The notes beneath the pieces were generated by a model. That model was not told the origin of the DNA. It searched no databases and was given only the letters and a program-made list of their open reading frames with translations. 64,000 bases of DNA from positions 11,803 through 75,802 of IMG/VR virus record IMGVR_UViG_2811995254_000001; one strand, 5' to 3'. Shown piece after piece: positions 57,185 to 64,000 of this stretch (within the stretch, counting starts at the first letter, position 1; each line of letters begins with the position of its first letter). The translations under genes and the position numbers were made by a program. This stretch comes from a virus. Lineage: Duplodnaviria; Caudoviricetes.

Positions 57185-57433
57185 CTAGCGTTTGTCTAGA
57201 AACATTTTGCCTTTACCTTGTAGTTGATATTCTATGGAAATCCCGAATGAATCGCATAATTTTAGAACAACATCAATTCCTACATTGGTCCTTCTTGATA
57301 TAAAGTCAGCCAATGTATTTGGTTCTATACCAAGTTCTCTGGATAGTTCTTCCCTAGACTGAACTTTTTTTGTTTTAATTAAATGATCGACAGATTCAGC
57401 AAAACGATCATTAATCTCATATGCTATACTCAT
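57185..57433 (-). CDS. Cro/C1-type HTH regulator
   Basis: ELSRELGI...L.DFI..R...V.KLC..FGIS.EY...GKG.MF. Confidence 0.85.
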   Translation of the reverse strand: MSIAYEINDRFAESVDHLIKTKKVQSREELSRELGIEPNTLADFISRRTNVGIDVVLKLCDSFGISIEYQLQGKGKMFLDKR

Positions 57434-58137
57434 TGCGCAGCGGTGTTAACGATTCCTAATATTTTAGCGATGTATCCAAGTCCTTTTTGAGTAACCATTG
57501 TTTGAGGTTCTACTTTAGTGATAGTAGAGTCTCCTTTTTTAATTTGTATCATCGTTTGCTTCAATGCGAAGTAACCACGATTAACAAATTCTTGCTTTGG
57601 TTCTTTGGATCCTTTAAATAGGATTCCTTTATCCCTTAAAATATTGTAGAGGATGTTTCGCCCAATATCAAGACCAAGTGATTTTGAAGCTTCTGACATT
57701 GTTAACAGTCCATCACAAGAAAAAACCTTGTCAATGTATTCATCGCGTGGTTTCATTCTCTGGTTCTCTAAAAGCAATGCTTCTTTTTCTTGTTCACTTT
57801 CCAAAAGCATCATTGCTAAATCTTTTTTAGTGATTGCTTTTAAATTTGGTTTAGCTGATTGTTTTTCTAATTCTTCCCAACGTATAATGAGTTTTGCTCT
57901 CGCTTCGTCATTAAATTTCGTTGCGATATAAAGACATTCTTTTTTTAATAGTTGGTATTCAGGTCTTTTTTCTCCTTTAGTGTCTATATAATCAACGAGG
58001 GAAAATTTACCTCCGTTAACTTTTTCCCATGCAGATTCCATCTTTCGGATTGCTTTTAGTATATCTGCATGAGATTTCCCAGTCATCACAGCAATTTCTC
58101 TACTTGACATGGTATGGTTTATTTCAATTTGGTTCAT
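57430..58137 (-). CDS. Rha-family / KilAC-domain antirepressor
   Basis: MSSREIA..TGK.H..IL..IR, Y.D.KGEKRP.Y.L; C-terminal IGRN.L...LR..G.L...P.Q.FV.RGYF...T.VTQKG. Confidence 0.9.
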   Translation of the reverse strand: MNQIEINHTMSSREIAVMTGKSHADILKAIRKMESAWEKVNGGKFSLVDYIDTKGEKRPEYQLLKKECLYIATKFNDEARAKLIIRWEELEKQSAKPNLKAITKKDLAMMLLESEQEKEALLLENQRMKPRDEYIDKVFSCDGLLTMSEASKSLGLDIGRNILYNILRDKGILFKGSKEPKQEFVNRGYFALKQTMIQIKKGDSTITKVEPQTMVTQKGLGYIAKILGIVNTAAQ

Positions 58138-58565: not shown

Positions 58566-58628
58566 CAAATATATACGCATTTGCGTAAAATAAAAATGTT
58601 TAAATGTTAAATTTTACTCATTTGCGTA
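58566..58628. promoter_or_regulatory. Early lytic promoter and two putative CI operators
   Basis: Minus TATATTTG at 58566-58573; palindrome TACGCATTTGCGTA at 58574-58587 and TACTCATTTGCGTA at 58615-58628. Confidence 0.75.
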
Positions 58629-58642
58629 TTAATTATATATAT

Positions 58643-59395
58643 ATGACTGTAAATCAAAAGATTGAGGAATTAATAATTAGAGAATGTAAAGGAAATAAAT
58701 CTGAATTTGCAAGAAGAGTTGGAGTTAGTCCAACTGTAATTGAAAATATCGTAGGTTCTAGAAAAGGCAAGCCTTCATTCGAAGTTTTATCTAAAATTTT
58801 AGGTTCTGATTTGTCAGTAGATCCTAGTTGGTTGTTTGATTTAGATGCTAATAATTCGGTTGTTCATGATTCTGTATTCGCTATTGATACTGAATTTGTA
58901 GATGACGAAGTAGAGGTATTTACAAATTCAAATGGGAATAAATTTTACTTGTACCCAAACAACAGAATTGAAATAGAGGTTATCAAAGTTCCTTTCCCTG
59001 CGTATGCATCATACATTGAATGTTATCAAGACGAAATGAATAGCTTTAATGGATTTGATACAATTCGTTTCAAGGCGGATCACATTGCTAAAGGAAATTA
59101 CATTTGCTTTGTGAGCGAGGGTGATTCAATGTGGAATGAAGGCGGCTATGATACACCAGGAGGTTCCGAAATTCTAGCCCGTGAGATTGGGCGTCAGTTC
59201 TGGGACAATTTACATAGTACAAAATATGGTTTAATTTTTGTAACTAAAACCGGTATTATGCACAAAGATATTGGAGGATATAATAAAGAAACTGGAATGT
59301 TCTCTTTATGCAGTAGAAACCCAGAACACAAACCTTTTGATTACCCTGCAAATGATGTATATCAGATATTTAATGTTATAAAGAGAAGTTTTTAA
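58643..59395 (+). CDS. CI-like repressor (HTH plus S24 peptidase)
   Basis: NKSEFARRVGVSPT HTH; GDSM serine and HKDI lysine; divergent from the early operon; MTVNQK start preferred because the upstream ATG overlaps an operator. Confidence 0.88.
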   Translation: MTVNQKIEELIIRECKGNKSEFARRVGVSPTVIENIVGSRKGKPSFEVLSKILGSDLSVDPSWLFDLDANNSVVHDSVFAIDTEFVDDEVEVFTNSNGNKFYLYPNNRIEIEVIKVPFPAYASYIECYQDEMNSFNGFDTIRFKADHIAKGNYICFVSEGDSMWNEGGYDTPGGSEILAREIGRQFWDNLHSTKYGLIFVTKTGIMHKDIGGYNKETGMFSLCSRNPEHKPFDYPANDVYQIFNVIKRSF

Positions 59396-59479: not shown

Positions 59480-59806
59480 ATGAAAAAAATCTACTCTTTA
59501 TTTAGTTTTTTAATTTTATTCTCTTTAATCGGATGTGCATCAGGATCTAAGCAAATGGAGAAACAACTATCTAATGTTTATATTGGAATGAGCGTTCAAG
59601 AATTCAACTCTATTGTTAAAAAGAAAAAAACAATAGAAATGAATTCTCAAAGAACAGTTTATTTAGTAAAAAAGCAAAATTGGTATGATTCAGATGGTAG
59701 TGGTAGTGATTATAGGTATTTTTATTTTGTAAATAATAAATTAGTTAGTATCGATCAGGGCGTAAAATCTGTAGATAAAAGAATTCAATACGATATTAAC
59801 AATTAA
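59480..59806 (+). CDS. Small lipoprotein (SmpA/OmlA-like), possible superinfection exclusion
   Basis: LIG-C lipobox, IGMS..E, YFYF.NNKLV; promoter TATATTTG at 59442-59449. Confidence 0.7.
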   Translation: MKKIYSLFSFLILFSLIGCASGSKQMEKQLSNVYIGMSVQEFNSIVKKKKTIEMNSQRTVYLVKKQNWYDSDGSGSDYRYFYFVNNKLVSIDQGVKSVDKRIQYDINN

Positions 59807-59816
59807 CACACACCTT

Positions 59817-60485
59817 ATGAAACAAATATTCTTTTTTTTACTATTACTTTCTTCAAGTGCATATTCGCAATGTACTTGGAATTCATTTTTCCCATTTAAA
59901 GCAGGAGATACTAAATTTGATATAGCACGTTTAAAAAGCACTAATTCTACTATTGCTGATAAAGATGATGAGTATGGACTTAGATCTGCTGTTGATAAAA
60001 TCAATAACGGATATAAAAAATATGATTATTTAAAAGACAGCGTTTATATAAATGTAATAAATCTTCAGTTTAATAATAATATTTGCTTAAAAAGTAAAAG
60101 TAATCATATTCAAGTTACATTATCAGACGATAAACTTCACAAAGGAACAGTAACCTTAGAATATGATGATTATGACACAATGAAACAACAGTATGATCAA
60201 TTGTTGGATTTAGTTCCAGAAGAGTATAGTTATATAAAAGAGTTTGAACGTACTAATAAAATCACTAATGAAAAAGTAGGAGAAGGTGTATGGTTTACTA
60301 CTAAATCTTCTAACGAAAAAGGAGAAAAATTAAATAGAATAGGAATAGGTTATAGTTTTAACTTTAAAAGTCATTGGGATAGTGTAAAAAAAGAATTTCA
60401 TCAATCAAATGAAATTGAAGAATATGTATTAGAAATAAATTTTACAGATTTAAGATTATCTAAATTAACAAATCAAGGTTATTAA
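59817..60485 (+). CDS. Secreted hypothetical protein
   Basis: Signal peptide ending AYS-Q. Confidence 0.7.
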   Translation: MKQIFFFLLLLSSSAYSQCTWNSFFPFKAGDTKFDIARLKSTNSTIADKDDEYGLRSAVDKINNGYKKYDYLKDSVYINVINLQFNNNICLKSKSNHIQVTLSDDKLHKGTVTLEYDDYDTMKQQYDQLLDLVPEEYSYIKEFERTNKITNEKVGEGVWFTTKSSNEKGEKLNRIGIGYSFNFKSHWDSVKKEFHQSNEIEEYVLEINFTDLRLSKLTNQGY

Positions 60486-60491
60486 TAATTT

Positions 60492-60707
60492 ATGACTAAA
60501 AAAGCGTTTATAGTTGGTTTATTGTCGATTTTTTTATTTTCGTTTTCAAGTCAGCAGCAAGTTTACATTTGCAAAGGTAAATCAAGTAAGAAATACCATA
60601 AATCTAGTAATTGCAGAGGATTGAATAGATGCTCGACTAGTATTTATAAAGTCAGTTTAAAGGAGGCAAAAGAGATAGGAAGAACGCCTTGTAAGATTGA
60701 GTATTAA
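60492..60707 (+). CDS. Small exported Cys/His protein
   Basis: VYIC.G..SKKYH....CRGL..C......L.EA...GRTPC.. Confidence 0.75.
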   Translation: MTKKAFIVGLLSIFLFSFSSQQQVYICKGKSSKKYHKSSNCRGLNRCSTSIYKVSLKEAKEIGRTPCKIEY

Positions 60708-60813
60708 TAAATCGCACAATTGTAATACGTTTTATCGTTAAATATCTCTATACTTATTTGTTACTTACATATACGTTTAGTATATTTATATGTGTTTAAA
60801 CATTAAACAATAT

Positions 60814-60844
60814 TTTGCGAAGTGTAAATTGTTTTTTACATTTG
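60814..60844 (+). promoter_or_regulatory. Canonical Bacteroidota promoter
   Basis: TTTG-N19-TACATTTG. Confidence 0.8.
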
Positions 60845-60883
60845 CAATCACTTTTTAAGTAACCTATTTAAAAAGAGTATATT

Positions 60884-61018
60884 ATGAAAAAAGCCGAAAT
60901 AATTAAAATGATCAAAGATATGTCAGAAAGAAAATCTTTGATGAAGTCTTATAGTAATGGTAAAATAACTAAAGATCAATTAGAACAAAGAGGAGTAAAA
61001 TTAGTTAAACCATTTTAA
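60884..61018 (+). CDS. 44-aa basic protein (not in ORF track)
   Basis: MKKAEIIKMIKDMSERKSLMKSYSNGKITKDQLEQRGVKLVKPF after the canonical promoter. Confidence 0.7.
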   Translation: MKKAEIIKMIKDMSERKSLMKSYSNGKITKDQLEQRGVKLVKPF

Positions 61019-61027
61019 TATAAAGAG

Positions 61028-61513
61028 ATGCCCTACCCTTTTGAATGGGATGAACATAGAAGATTATATTCTTTTACTACTGCAACAAATTTAACGTATG
61101 AATTATCCTTTACTAAAGATGAAAATCTAAATATTGGTAATGCTGATAATCCTATAGATAATATATATCATTTTGTTTTAGCTAAGAGAGAGGAAGATCA
61201 AAATATTAAATCAAATGATAAGGATATCTCTGAAACAATTAGGGCTGTCGTAACTGCCTTTTTCCAAAACAATATTAATTACACTTTAGTTTATACTTGT
61301 GATGATGAGGATAATAAAGGTATATGTAGATTTGTGCTTTTTGAAAAATGGTATAAAACATGGGTAGTTCCAGATTACGAAAAAATTGATAACATAATTG
61401 AGTTAGATGATACACGCATCTTTACATCAATAATCTTGCACAAGTCCAATGAAAATTATGACGTCATTATAGATAGACATAAAAACATTGTTCAAAACTA
61501 CAAAAGAGAATAA
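61028..61513 (+). CDS. DUF6169-like protein
   Basis: YSF.T.....Y...F; D..I..TI..V...FF......L.Y.CD..D.K...R..LF.KWY. Confidence 0.7.
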   Translation: MPYPFEWDEHRRLYSFTTATNLTYELSFTKDENLNIGNADNPIDNIYHFVLAKREEDQNIKSNDKDISETIRAVVTAFFQNNINYTLVYTCDDEDNKGICRFVLFEKWYKTWVVPDYEKIDNIIELDDTRIFTSIILHKSNENYDVIIDRHKNIVQNYKRE

Positions 61514-61517
61514 AAGC

Positions 61518-61542
61518 AAAAGCCACTCAATCGAGTGGTTTT
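61518..61542. terminator. Terminator
   Basis: AAAAGCCACTC/GAGTGGTTTT. Confidence 0.8.
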
Positions 61543-61559
61543 ATTATTTTAGCTAATAT

Positions 61560-62160
61560 TAAATCAGTCGGTGGGCATTTTAGCCTAGCGGAGTAAGTCT
61601 TGTATACTCACTGAGCCGAAAACTTGACCCAGTAATGTTAGAGCAAGCGATCTAATGTAAATACTTGATAATCACCACTACCATATTTTATGGTAATGGC
61701 TCAAATTAGTTGCTTTGTTATCTGCTTTATTAAAATTTGATGAAGCACTTGCTAGTTTTTGTTAGCATTTGCTTGAAATGGGTTGTTTTTGAGAGAAAAT
61801 TTTTGAAAAAAATCGGTAAGTTATATTATAAGTAATATTTGATATTTATTACTGCTTTGAAGGCTAAAACGTTGTGGATAAAACACAATTATCCTTAGGC
61901 AAGCCAAGTTATTTTGTACTAAAAATAGTATTATAAACTCGACAAGCCAGGATTGTGTTTTAATGATCTGCTTCGTTAGGAAAATACGCGCATCTAAAAC
62001 ATACAACTACGTCTAACTACCAATGTTGTAATTTGAGACAATTTGCAGATAATGTTAGTTCTGCCCTTGGTGGTCTGTCTCTTGCAATGACCCGTCAAGC
62101 GTCCTTTCATTTCTTCTTGACTTAATAGTGTAAGGTTTTCGAAATCGAGCCGTAGAACGC
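61560..62160 (+). ncRNA. Candidate large ornate non-coding RNA (~600 nt)
   Basis: Many nested and serial stems with a plus-strand G-U bias; no convincing ORF; variant -7 box TATTTTAG at 61545-61552. Confidence 0.6.
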
Positions 62161-62266
62161 ATAAAAAAACCTCCAATCAGCGACGTAGCAATGCTGTTGA
62201 AGGTTTTTTATTATATCAATAAGAGTTCAACCTAAAACCAATTAGATTGCTACGTCTTATTGATTG
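62161..62266 (-). promoter_or_regulatory. Attenuator-like terminator/antiterminator pair
   Basis: Terminator at 62161-62211 whose 11-nt loop (62182-62192) is exactly complementary to 62246-62256. Confidence 0.6.
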
Positions 62267-62313
62267 AATCAGATGTACAAAATATTTTATACAAATTACA
62301 TATAAATTTTATA

Positions 62314-62703
62314 TTATTTATTTTTCCTGATTTCTTCTAGTTCCTTTAGTATTCGGATTTGAGTTTTAGCGATAACATCTAGTTTTGCGATAATTTGCTG
62401 ATTACCTAATATATCTACGTCCGTACCAATTAAGTTTTGTTGCAGCTGTTTAATTGTATGATCAACAGTAAATACGGGCAACTCTCCTTTTGTCAAAAAC
62501 AAATAGTTTATCTCTGGGCATTTTTCTATTGCTTTTTTGGCGAATGCGGGCGTTATGGAAGCGGTTCTTCCATAAACAATAGAATCAACCACTGAGTTGT
62601 TATTGTATCCTAATTTCTCTCCTAGATGCATTGTCGCGATTCCGAATTCTTGTGCTAACATTTTAAGTCTGTCAGCGGGGTTTTCGATTATTTTTTTCTC
62701 CAT
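62314..62703 (-). CDS. HTH-like regulator coupled to the integrase
   Basis: LGEKLGY......I..GR..SIT...I....PEIN..FL..GE. Confidence 0.7.
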   Translation of the reverse strand: MEKKIIENPADRLKMLAQEFGIATMHLGEKLGYNNNSVVDSIVYGRTASITPAFAKKAIEKCPEINYLFLTKGELPVFTVDHTIKQLQQNLIGTDVDILGNQQIIAKLDVIAKTQIRILKELEEIRKNK

Positions 62704-62704
62704 A

Positions 62705-64000
62705 TTACAAGGCTTGTTGTTTCCAATAATCTGCTAACATTTTAGCTGATTCCAGATTTGTTTGTTTATTGTATTCTAGCATTTGTTTTTCACTTTTCCA
62801 CCCACAAACATCCATAATTACTTTGTTAGGTAATTTTCCTATGTGGTTTGTAGCAAAAGAACGTCGGCAAATGTGTGAAGATACTAATTTGTGTTTAGGA
62901 TATTCTCCTACTTCCTTTCTTACAGTATCTTCTCCTGTACTACCATCAACTTTAGTTTTTATTTTTCCGCCAATTATCATAGTGGAAATTTTAGCTAATT
63001 TACAAATTGCTTTTATTTCTCGGTTAAATTCTTGTTCAAACGTTTTAGGTGGCAGTCCTTTCCATTTTTTTAATATCTCCTTTACTTGAGGGTGTAATGG
63101 TATAGTTACGCTGTGATTTGTCTTAAAAGTTTTGATGCTAATAAAGTCTCCTTGGATATCTTCTGTTTTTAGTCTATTCAAAAAATCTGATACTCGCATG
63201 CCGGTCCATAATCCAATAATGAAATTATCGCGTATTGCATCTCTTTTCTTATCTGCAATCTTCAGTTTATATATTCTATTAATTTCTTCTACATTCAAAT
63301 ATGGGGCTTTATACTGAACTTCTGCTTTCTGTATGTAAACTATTTCACGATATCCTTTATTTACTTTTAGATTTAACTTTTCGGCACGTTCACAAAAGAA
63401 CTTTGCACGAGAAACATGTCTATGTACAGTTGTTTCAGAAAACCCGCGTTCATTTGATAAATAACTACTGAAGCTGTCTAGGAACTTATTATCAACATCA
63501 ATAAGCTTTATCGGGTCTTTACCTTCAAAGTCTATTAAAAGATCGCGTAATCTACTATTATGACTGATTGACTTTTCATTCATATACTTGTTAGCAGCTA
63601 CTTTATGTGTTTCTGCTTTATTTTCAAGCCACCAAGTCGCAAAAGAAGTTAGGTATATTTCCTCTTTCTTTATTTTAAAATTACTCTCTGAAGTTGGCCT
63701 ATTAAAAAATTCATTCACCTTATTGGAGATCCAAAACTTGTCAATTGTTTCACCTTGGATATAAGATGAATTGAATTCTGTTAGGATAAAAACTTTAAGC
63801 TCACCTAATTTTAGATTGATTTCATTTCTATTCTTTACAGCAAGAACGTTTTTGATTTGTTCTTTTTTTGAATCCCAGTGATCAGGATTAATCGAAATTT
63901 GTATTCGATGAAAAACATCAATTTGTTTTGTATGTAAGAATCTTAGATACAAAGTTGAGGGGTTAGAATTCCCTCTAAGAAGAAATTTAACTGTAGCCAT
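62705..64000 (-). CDS. int: Tyrosine integrase
   Basis: TGMRVSD (R), KT (K), HICRRSFAT (HxxR), GW, EYNK (Y); N-terminal arm-binding and SAM-like domains. Confidence 0.95.
   Translation of the reverse strand: MATVKFLLRGNSNPSTLYLRFLHTKQIDVFHRIQISINPDHWDSKKEQIKNVLAVKNRNEINLKLGELKVFILTEFNSSYIQGETIDKFWISNKVNEFFNRPTSESNFKIKKEEIYLTSFATWWLENKAETHKVAANKYMNEKSISHNSRLRDLLIDFEGKDPIKLIDVDNKFLDSFSSYLSNERGFSETTVHRHVSRAKFFCERAEKLNLKVNKGYREIVYIQKAEVQYKAPYLNVEEINRIYKLKIADKKRDAIRDNFIIGLWTGMRVSDFLNRLKTEDIQGDFISIKTFKTNHSVTIPLHPQVKEILKKWKGLPPKTFEQEFNREIKAICKLAKISTMIIGGKIKTKVDGSTGEDTVRKEVGEYPKHKLVSSHICRRSFATNHIGKLPNKVIMDVCGWKSEKQMLEYNKQTNLESAKMLADYWKQQAL

Follow-up and report, generated by a model that had tools for sequence, protein, structure and literature searches.

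A mosaic non-coding cassette beside the integrase gene of a Myroides-type prophage, with a possible minus-strand leader

RNA control of phage antirepressors is exemplified by sar of P22 and by c4 of P1 and P7 (PMC12197685, available portion), and in Gifsy-1 the terminator of the IsrK leader is partly read through, which sets expression of downstream genes (PMC4825925, available portion). Prophages can also carry large ornate RNAs such as ROOL and GOLLD (PMC5737381 and bioRxiv 10.1101/2024.12.08.627333, available portions). We analyzed a 64-kb stretch of viral DNA (64,000 nucleotides [nt], referred to here as the window, to which all positions refer unless a locus is named), which is the terminal part of the 75.8-kb IMG/VR provirus record IMGVR_UViG_2811995254_000001. 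An earlier note on this DNA had proposed that a gap beside the integrase gene (int) encodes a single ornate plus-strand RNA of about 600 nt (61545-62160). The gap instead contains a mosaic, accessory, non-coding cassette (61557-62313), which is not a single unit, and within it a real, lineage-restricted conserved non-coding core at about 61800-62215. The explanation that we favor, although only tentatively, is that the cassette is the leader of a decayed antirepressor unit linked to int and its neighbor in the excisionase (xis) position, read on the minus strand.

The cassette resembles sar, c4, and IsrK in that a non-coding segment lies beside or upstream of an antirepressor gene, here a remnant, as far as the available portions of PMC4825925 and PMC12197685 describe those elements. 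It differs from them in having a Bacteroidota host, a leader of about 420 nt rather than 70 to 220 nt, and a dead antirepressor gene. There was also no match to an Rfam family, at gathering score or, apart from terminator-driven noise, at E values up to 10, and no complementarity to phage targets above chance. The likeness is an analogy of mechanism, not membership.

In phage lambda, tI/sib retroregulates int by means of a terminator hairpin downstream of the integration genes. Here too a terminator lies past the integration genes, A- and T-runs would lengthen its stem in read-through transcripts, and structure at the 3' end of the int operon is conserved. Unlike in lambda, however, the att site is on the far side of int (a tRNA-Arg gene lies 5' of the int start), so that integration does not part the element from int but leaves the two joined.

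The cassette shares with ROOL and GOLLD, as described in the available portions of those sources, several hundred non-coding bases in a prophage. Unlike them, it has no covariance-model match and no significant global plus-strand fold, one third of it is a gene remnant, and it was seen in only a few Myroides-type prophages. Like phage morons, it is present or absent between near-identical prophages, its edges fall exactly at gene and terminator boundaries, and it occupies an int-proximal cargo slot that holds a KAP NTPase or a HipA-like kinase in relatives. Unlike morons, it has no open reading frame (ORF) and consists of an untranslated region plus gene remnants.

Mosaic structure and gene remnants

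The cassette occupies the interval from the terminator that follows the last cargo gene to the point where the xis-position gene (xis for brevity) has its stop codon. Its features are listed from left to right.

61520-61551, no strand: terminator hairpin GCCACTC-AATC-GAGTGG (61522-61538) plus T-tract, closing the DUF6169 protein gene; 2 matches against 0.01 expected; left edge of the cassette
61548-61697, minus: probable remnant of the 5' end of a KilA-N-type antirepressor gene, interrupted by three in-frame stops and found with tblastn/BLASTP
61715-61745, minus: remnant of the start of a Rha-type gene, stop-ridden; about 20 of 27 bases matched by eye
61768-61871, no strand: module B, an AT-rich upstream region common to the NP-2 prophage and an unrelated locus in genome G539; diverged second copy in organism B
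61823-61838, minus: small hairpin formed by the palindrome ATATTA/TAATAT; where NP-2 and G539 have substitutions, the bases still pair, but only as minus-strand G-U
61879-61962, minus: long hairpin with an 11-base pair (bp) base and inner stems; base invariant, apex variable with insertions and deletions (indels)
61963-62163, no strand: sequence-conserved block, 88 to 100% identical to NP-2, holding hairpins 62035-62081 and 62094-62121
62164-62209, both strands: bidirectional intrinsic terminator T, with A-run 62163-62169, 11-bp stem 62170-62203, 11-nt loop, and T-run 62204-62209
62182-62256, minus: covarying 11-nt inverted repeat pairing the T loop (62182-62192) with 62246-62256; perfect complementarity
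62213-62266, minus: hairpin H2 of 10 to 12 bp, whose loop bears the 3' arm of the covarying repeat; one minus-strand G-U in Myroides odoratus

That the cassette is accessory was shown by provirus L002, which is 99.2% identical to the window over 60728-61556 and 96.7% identical over 62314-64000 yet is without 61557-62313. In L002 the hairpin at 61522-61538 abuts the xis-like stop codon directly. A target-site duplication of a mobile insert was considered and rejected, as the flanking repeat consists of xis C-terminal codons that resemble the terminator T-tract.

Other relatives share different portions of the region. The prophage of Myroides sp. NP-2 (locus L006 of genome G002) matched 61723-62313 only, at 86% identity; M. 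odoratus (L007) shared 62130-62302 only; and genome G539 (L026) shared 61700-61871 only, with 89% identity over the 103 nt of module B. An organism here called organism B has a DNA contig that covers 61520-63100; the differences listed for its copy (40 of 158) include a 9 nt-insertion after 61782, and the left flank is another. The same run also yielded a second contig with a diverged copy of 61800-61882. Organism B contains 0.70 of the sampled 31-letter words of the gap, and at least 12 of its isolate runs contain about 70% of them. The edge of homology differs by relative (61723 in NP-2, 62130 in M. odoratus, 61871 in G539, and 61520 in organism B).

Several further observations concern these relatives. 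In M. odoratus, 5913-6236 of L007 (minus in the locus, plus in window orientation) encodes the first 107 codons of a terminase large subunit and ends exactly at the conserved block. This fragment matched phrog_6681 at profile positions 12-100 of 758, and from its sequence the M. odoratus prophage looks like a defective one truncated by a large deletion. In genome G539 (L026 1-1193 and 1478-1605), the copy of module B has no prophage integrase nearby and lies about 300 nt from a Mutator-family transposase gene (Pfam Transposase_mut). Diverged copies of module B were also present in organism B and in RNA-library metagenomes. Module B is therefore a small dispersed family, and it is probably either a promoter/operator or a 5' RNA segment. 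When it was searched in five genomes at E values up to 1, no further copy was better than E 0.03.

The gap itself (61514-62313) is non-coding, as the earlier note had held, with no ORF longer than 61 amino acids (aa) and no tRNA. Two indels relative to NP-2 (2 nt at 62051-52 and 5 nt near 61925), together with stops, break every frame. The sole ORF shared with NP-2, of 35 aa on the minus strand (62055-62162), differs at 5 amino acids, with about 8 bases changed (hand count), and its start is inside the terminator U-run. These indels, stops, and changes indicate that the region does not code, and conserved small ORFs were therefore rejected.

The earlier note had also allowed that the element might prove to be a decayed ORF. 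This is true of the left third, where translated similarity interrupted by stops was found, for 61548-61697 only, on the minus strand. Reading through its stops gave an alignment of this segment to the NP-2 KilA-N+ANT protein at residues 12-67 (34% identity, E values of 6e-5 and 2e-7), and a 32-nt stretch of it has 97% DNA identity to the NP-2 KilA-N gene. Pfam did not recognize the remnant alone, and its assignment as a KilA-N antirepressor is therefore called probable. Except for that 32-nt stretch, there was no second match to the gap in the NP-2 genome, and CRISPR-repeat mimicry was rejected.

The second remnant, 61715-61745, is homologous to two gene starts: that of a truncated Rha ORF of 44 aa in NP-2, and that of the window's intact Rha-ANT gene (57430-58137, start 58137). 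The NP-2 ORF, on the minus strand to the left of the 61723 match point, is the N-terminal 31 residues of the Rha domain (Pfam Phage_pRha, E 2e-8), and NP-2 6256-6311 matches window 58075-58130 at 91%. A search of 201 genomes with the 44-aa fragment found only the fragment itself. None of 797 translated frames (from 8 of 59 loci, L002-L008 and L026, and from window 1-61500) matched 61745-62163 beyond plain DNA homology.

Conserved core, hairpins, and strand

Identity to NP-2 in 50-nt bins was 0.92 to 0.94 over 61800-61899, 0.70 over 61900-61949, 0.88 to 1.00 over 61950-62199, and 0.68 to 0.74 over 62200-62299. Bins of coding DNA gave 0.58 to 0.78 for xis and 0.64 to 0.88 for int. The 0.70 bin corresponds to the long hairpin's apex. 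Although int DNA of M. odoratus is 69% identical, its identity over 62150-62199 is 0.90, and a hand count on the alignment gave 3 differences in the 69 nt of 62130-62209 that lie outside the covarying loop (about 96% identity). The conserved block has a G+C content of 0.40 compared with 0.27 to 0.34 around it, and M. odoratus too retains the final 34 nt of the block (62130-62163).

Terminator T has the stem-loop and T-run of an intrinsic terminator, with all (100%) of its cells paired across the three lineages in which it is kept. On the minus strand it closes the int-xis operon, and a T-run is present on the plus strand as well. In the window, what would be a C-A mismatch in its stem on the plus strand is a U-G pair on the minus strand. 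The inverted repeat that joins the T loop to the loop of H2 covaries: 3 of 9 counted pairs changed on both sides across the three lineages, which was reached by 15 of 500 shuffles, with 0 in slid controls. All of its pairs remain Watson-Crick, with no wobble. The repeat could form an alternative or kissing pairing in the xis 3' region, but because every pair stays Watson-Crick, it could equally be two protein sites.

Changes in the remaining helices mostly point to the minus strand. In the long hairpin, NP-2 has a single compensatory change (G-C to U-A) and two wobble changes (G-C to G-U and G-U to G-C), in addition to a constant U-G pair, and all of these pair on the minus strand; the wobbles pair there whereas on the plus strand they are A-C mismatches. 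By hand count, the palindrome at 61823-61838 changes to a minus-strand G-U in NP-2 and twice in G539. In a tally over helices identified from their Watson-Crick repeats, which is small and was partly chosen after folding, 9 cells were G-U on the minus strand and a mismatch on the plus strand, and 0 were the reverse; without the stem taken from the minus-strand fold, the tally was 6 to 0. Predicted pairs that changed on both sides numbered 3 of 114 on the minus strand and 1 of 122 on the plus strand, in a full-length alignment of two sequences only (window and NP-2) that makes covariation almost powerless.

Folding energies were also in line with the minus strand. For 61841-62215 the z-score against shuffles was -1.48 on the plus strand and -3.30 on the minus strand, and the NP-2 copy gave -1.68 and -3.42. 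In 160-nt sliding windows, minus-strand z-scores were -3.9 to -4.5 over 61800-61999 (-0.6 to -1.7 on the plus strand), -3.0 to -4.0 over 61560-61799, and -4.2 to -6.7 over 62120-62319. The core is probably read on the minus strand. Directly past the terminator U-run, a multi-branch domain might be closed on the minus strand by an 11-bp helix of 62152-62162 with 61984-61995, which includes two U-G pairs; its arms are both invariant between the two full-length sequences and hence uninformative.

These results bear directly on the ornate RNA. All eight of the stem pairs that the earlier note quoted are present and fully complementary (9/9, 5/5, 5/5, 6/6, 7/7, 11/11, 6/6, and 6/6), and four of the five stems of the 5' domain have one plus-strand G-U each. 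As a set, however, they exceed chance only weakly, with nested stems of 5 to 9 bp expected by chance at 33% G+C, and the 11-bp stem alone stands out a little. For example, there were 5 perfect 9-nt inverted repeats compared with a shuffle mean of 1.7, and at least 5 arose in 20 of 300 shuffles; a perfect 11-nt inverted repeat arose in 25 of 300. The plus strand of 61545-62160 had a minimum free energy of -139.5 kcal/mol versus -133.7 in shuffles (z-score -1.32, equalled by 2 of 20 shuffles), whereas the minus strand had a z-score of -3.51 with 0 of 20 shuffles as good. The closing stem (61578/61861) was unused in the plus-strand minimum and used in that of the minus strand.

Comparison with relatives was no kinder to the single fold. 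The left arms of five of the eight stems (61578, 61587, 61615, 61626, and 61644) lie in or beside the gene remnant and have no NP-2 counterpart, and two right arms are altered at the NP-2 locus (TCGGT to AGGGT and TTGCTTG to TTGTTTG). Two relatives, a close one that lacks the cassette and a distant one that has a part of it, show that the nested stems in this AT-rich DNA were no evidence of an ornate RNA. The remark that nearly all wobbles are G-U on the plus strand is correct for four 5'-domain stems and wrong for the helices kept in homologues, in which all wobbles fall on the minus strand. At 61545, the supposed variant -7 box TATTTTAG turned out to be the T-tract belonging to the hairpin (61522-61538) that terminates the upstream ORF. 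What survives of the earlier proposal is conserved sequence and a few genuine hairpins; one global ornate fold does not.

No known RNA family was matched. Rfam covariance models gave 0 matches at gathering score in the 64-kb window, and a search for tRNA and tmRNA found none in the gap. At E values up to 10, 61400-62400 gave 7 weak matches, terminator-driven noise that included neither ROOL nor GOLLD, and nothing tied the gap to these RNAs. At the same limit, the NP-2 and G539 copies gave only terminator-driven noise, with no ROOL or GOLLD in the NP-2 copy. The C4 antisense RNA family (P1 c4, P4 CI, and IsrK), presumably part of the Rfam library, was likewise not matched at E values up to 10 by the window gap or the NP-2 copy.

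Explanations for the cassette

The order of elements on the minus strand suggested the explanation that we tentatively favor. It would run from int through xis, T, and H2 into an untranslated leader of about 420 nt (62163 to 61745), followed by the Rha/KilA-N remnants (61745 to 61548) and the hairpin at 61545-61520. The putative leader would comprise the sequence-conserved block, the one long hairpin, and the conserved AT-rich module B. Because all of these are co-oriented, the simplest reading is a former antirepressor unit behind int-xis. In the intact ancestor, a choice between T plus H2 and the loop pairing may have set how much transcription passed from int-xis into the leader and the antirepressor.

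The leader is far better kept than the dead gene or the neighboring coding genes, its conservation is uneven, and its changes preserve pairing, all of which suggests that it keeps a role. It probably still acts as RNA, whether in trans or, by extending int-xis transcripts at their 3' end, in cis, and the conserved stretch may still be a small regulatory RNA on the minus strand. Trans targets within the phage were rejected, as the core showed at best 16 nt (32.2 bits) of complementarity to other parts of the window, which was equalled in 3 of 30 shuffles, and there was none at the start of the Rha-ANT gene. By analogy with P1 c4, a minus-strand leader might be an orphan immunity RNA, retained after the decay of its antirepressor gene, that silences or prematurely terminates the antirepressor operons of related superinfecting phages, or it might tune int-xis through the terminator-loop pairing, but we consider such a role highly doubtful. 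If it were true, this would be an RNA-based exclusion or immunity module in Bacteroidota prophages without an Rfam relative.

Several observations weigh against a functional minus-strand leader. The best-conserved region, 61920-62199, has no local folding signal on either strand (z-score about 0), and the small, partly post hoc wobble tally and the two-sequence alignment limit what pairing can say. Bacteroidota promoters recognized by sigma-AB have the consensus TTTG / TAnnTTTG; an exact promoter of this type (6/6 match to the -7 box, with TTG 17 to 23 nt upstream) was absent from 61501-62313 on either strand, in which the -7 box variants were 5/6 matches only. RNA-library contigs from runs X19 and X20 of one study lie on 61841-62195, 61972-62182, and 62054-62182, with several variants of 61800-61902. 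These libraries cover int-xis too, at higher depth, and the contigs give neither strand nor ends, their breaks coinciding with repeat branch points, so they are no evidence of transcription. One library variant (61891 A>G) would be a G-U pair on the plus strand and a mismatch on the minus strand, provided that the base opposite it is the same. Immediately after module B, G539 has a short plus-strand hairpin with T7 (read by eye), which would fit a plus-strand RNA. The absence of the cassette from L002, which is rated 95% complete, indicates from sequence comparison that it is dispensable. In addition, the contig of organism B, with its 0.70 of words, spans the dead remnant; selection would not be expected to conserve such a remnant, and high identity may instead reflect recent module exchange.

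The last two points lead to the best surviving alternative, a non-functional relic in which the cassette is decaying junk from illegitimate recombination in a cargo hot spot and its identity reflects recent exchange. Besides the absence from L002 and the dead remnant retained by organism B, the two gene remnants inside the cassette, the homology edges that differ per relative as is typical of phage mosaicism, and the M. odoratus block joined to a truncated terminase gene all fit this explanation. Against a relic stand uneven identity to NP-2, with a 70% patch at the hairpin apex between blocks of 92 to 96%, changes in the counted helices that mostly preserve pairing, a 62130-62209 segment about 96% identical to M. 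odoratus outside the covarying loop when int DNA is 69% identical, and the raised G+C content of the conserved block. We regard a relic as rather unlikely.

A plus-strand non-coding RNA, either the ornate one of about 600 nt (61545-62160) or a shorter small RNA running from or after module B to T (62164-62215), is unlikely. The plus-strand T-run of T, the uniformly plus-strand cargo genes of the slot in relatives, the G539 hairpin with T7, and the 61891 variant are consistent with it, as are weak promoter-like boxes TGTTTTTG (61784) and TAGTTCTG (62056) with TTTG 20 to 22 nt upstream. Against these stand plus-strand folds that were no better than shuffles (z-scores of -1.3 to -1.7), conserved-helix wobbles that are mismatches on the plus strand, the lack of an exact promoter consensus or Rfam family in the gap, and, for the longer version, a 5' domain built on a gene remnant that NP-2 is without. 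It is quite improbable that the region is solely a DNA-level control region without RNA function, with module B as promoter/operator and the repeats and block as sites for the xis-position regulator, integrase, or a repressor: paired protein sites would also explain joint Watson-Crick changes in both 11-nt arms, and the lack of folding signal in the most conserved 200 nt and an AT-rich, palindromic module B that recurs upstream of Rha-type gene remnants fit such a region, but DNA sites would not be expected to change by wobble alone, as T, H2, the long hairpin, and the small palindrome do, and one repeat arm is exactly the loop of a terminator hairpin.

The main present value of these results is corrective: the ornate plus-strand RNA of about 600 nt is unsupported, and what is real is a conserved non-coding element of narrower extent. 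Should the core prove to be a working RNA, few regulatory RNAs would have been described before it in temperate phages of Flavobacteriia, a group whose promoters, terminators, and RNA chaperones differ from those of enteric models, and the terminator-loop pairing would be a testable switch between integration genes and antirepressor.

Prophage setting, relatives, and cargo

The cassette is internal to the prophage. The neighboring genes on its right are as follows.

62314-62703, minus: xis-position gene, 129 aa; phrog_2967 (transcriptional regulators), E 8e-6; its stop codon is the right edge of the cassette
62705-64000, minus: tyrosine integrase gene int, Pfam Phage_integrase, at the prophage edge

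The provirus record ends on the integrase start codon, and relatives of the integrase are present in Myroides and Flavobacterium genomes. A tRNA-Arg gene lies 5' of the int start in all four related genomic loci with flanking DNA (L005-L008); the distance is about 185 nt in three of these, and on the far side of the tRNA gene NP-2 has the host rho gene. This position in relatives places int at the prophage edge and the gap (61514-62313) inside the prophage. An attachment site (attP) in the gap was rejected accordingly, because the tRNA-Arg gene is on the far side of int. The 129-aa protein encoded in the xis position matched no Pfam family.

Homologues of the gap were few. BLAST of the gap against samples of genomes, which overlap heavily and appear not to be Myroides-specific, gave a long match only in NP-2 among 401 genomes of a family sample (ten others matched over 25 to 68 nt, with E values of 3e-6 to 9e-4), NP-2 and G539 among 201 genomes of a genus sample, G003 and G539 in the same sample centered on G003, and NP-2 only among 121 relatives. 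A blastn search of a phage GenBank collection, set for distant similarity, found no match to the gap, and exact patterns of three conserved stretches had 0 hits among viral contigs as well as among metagenome contigs. When the xis and int proteins were used to scan viral contigs, the same 3 proviruses came back. Literature on Myroides, prophages, and integrases, taken at the level of titles and abstract openings, included none on this element.

On the left, the last of the plus-strand cargo genes encodes a DUF6169 protein (61028-61513). Cargo varies in the slot that has a CI-like repressor gene on one side and the xis-position gene on the other, with the following contents.

Window 59480-61513: several small ORFs and the DUF6169 protein gene
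L004 3845-5248: KAP-family NTPase gene
L008 4620-6262: HipA-like kinase gene and an unknown gene

The slot's cargo genes in relatives are all on the plus strand. Neighboring defense systems were considered and rejected, as PADLOC assigned 0 families to the window cargo proteins (6 of 6 proteins). Farther left is the lysogeny switch of the window, in which a repressor-like gene (phrog_4, 58604-59395, plus) faces the intact Rha+ANT antirepressor gene (57430-58137, minus) across a 465-nt gap. A resemblance of the cassette to this gap of the phage's own switch was rejected, as its score of 28 compared with a shuffle mean of 21.9 and a maximum of 31.

The terminator hairpin at the left edge of the cassette (type GCCACTC...GAGTGG) is found again in related proviruses, where it borders cargo cassettes. 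Its copies are at these positions.

Window: 61522-61538
L002: 1674-1730 and 2508-2558
L003: 4382-4405
L004: 2705-2726 and 3785-3815
L008: 4585-4626

In L004 the two copies flank a 1-kb cassette of three small ORFs. This recurring palindromic terminator hairpin may be a shared boundary sequence for cassette exchange.

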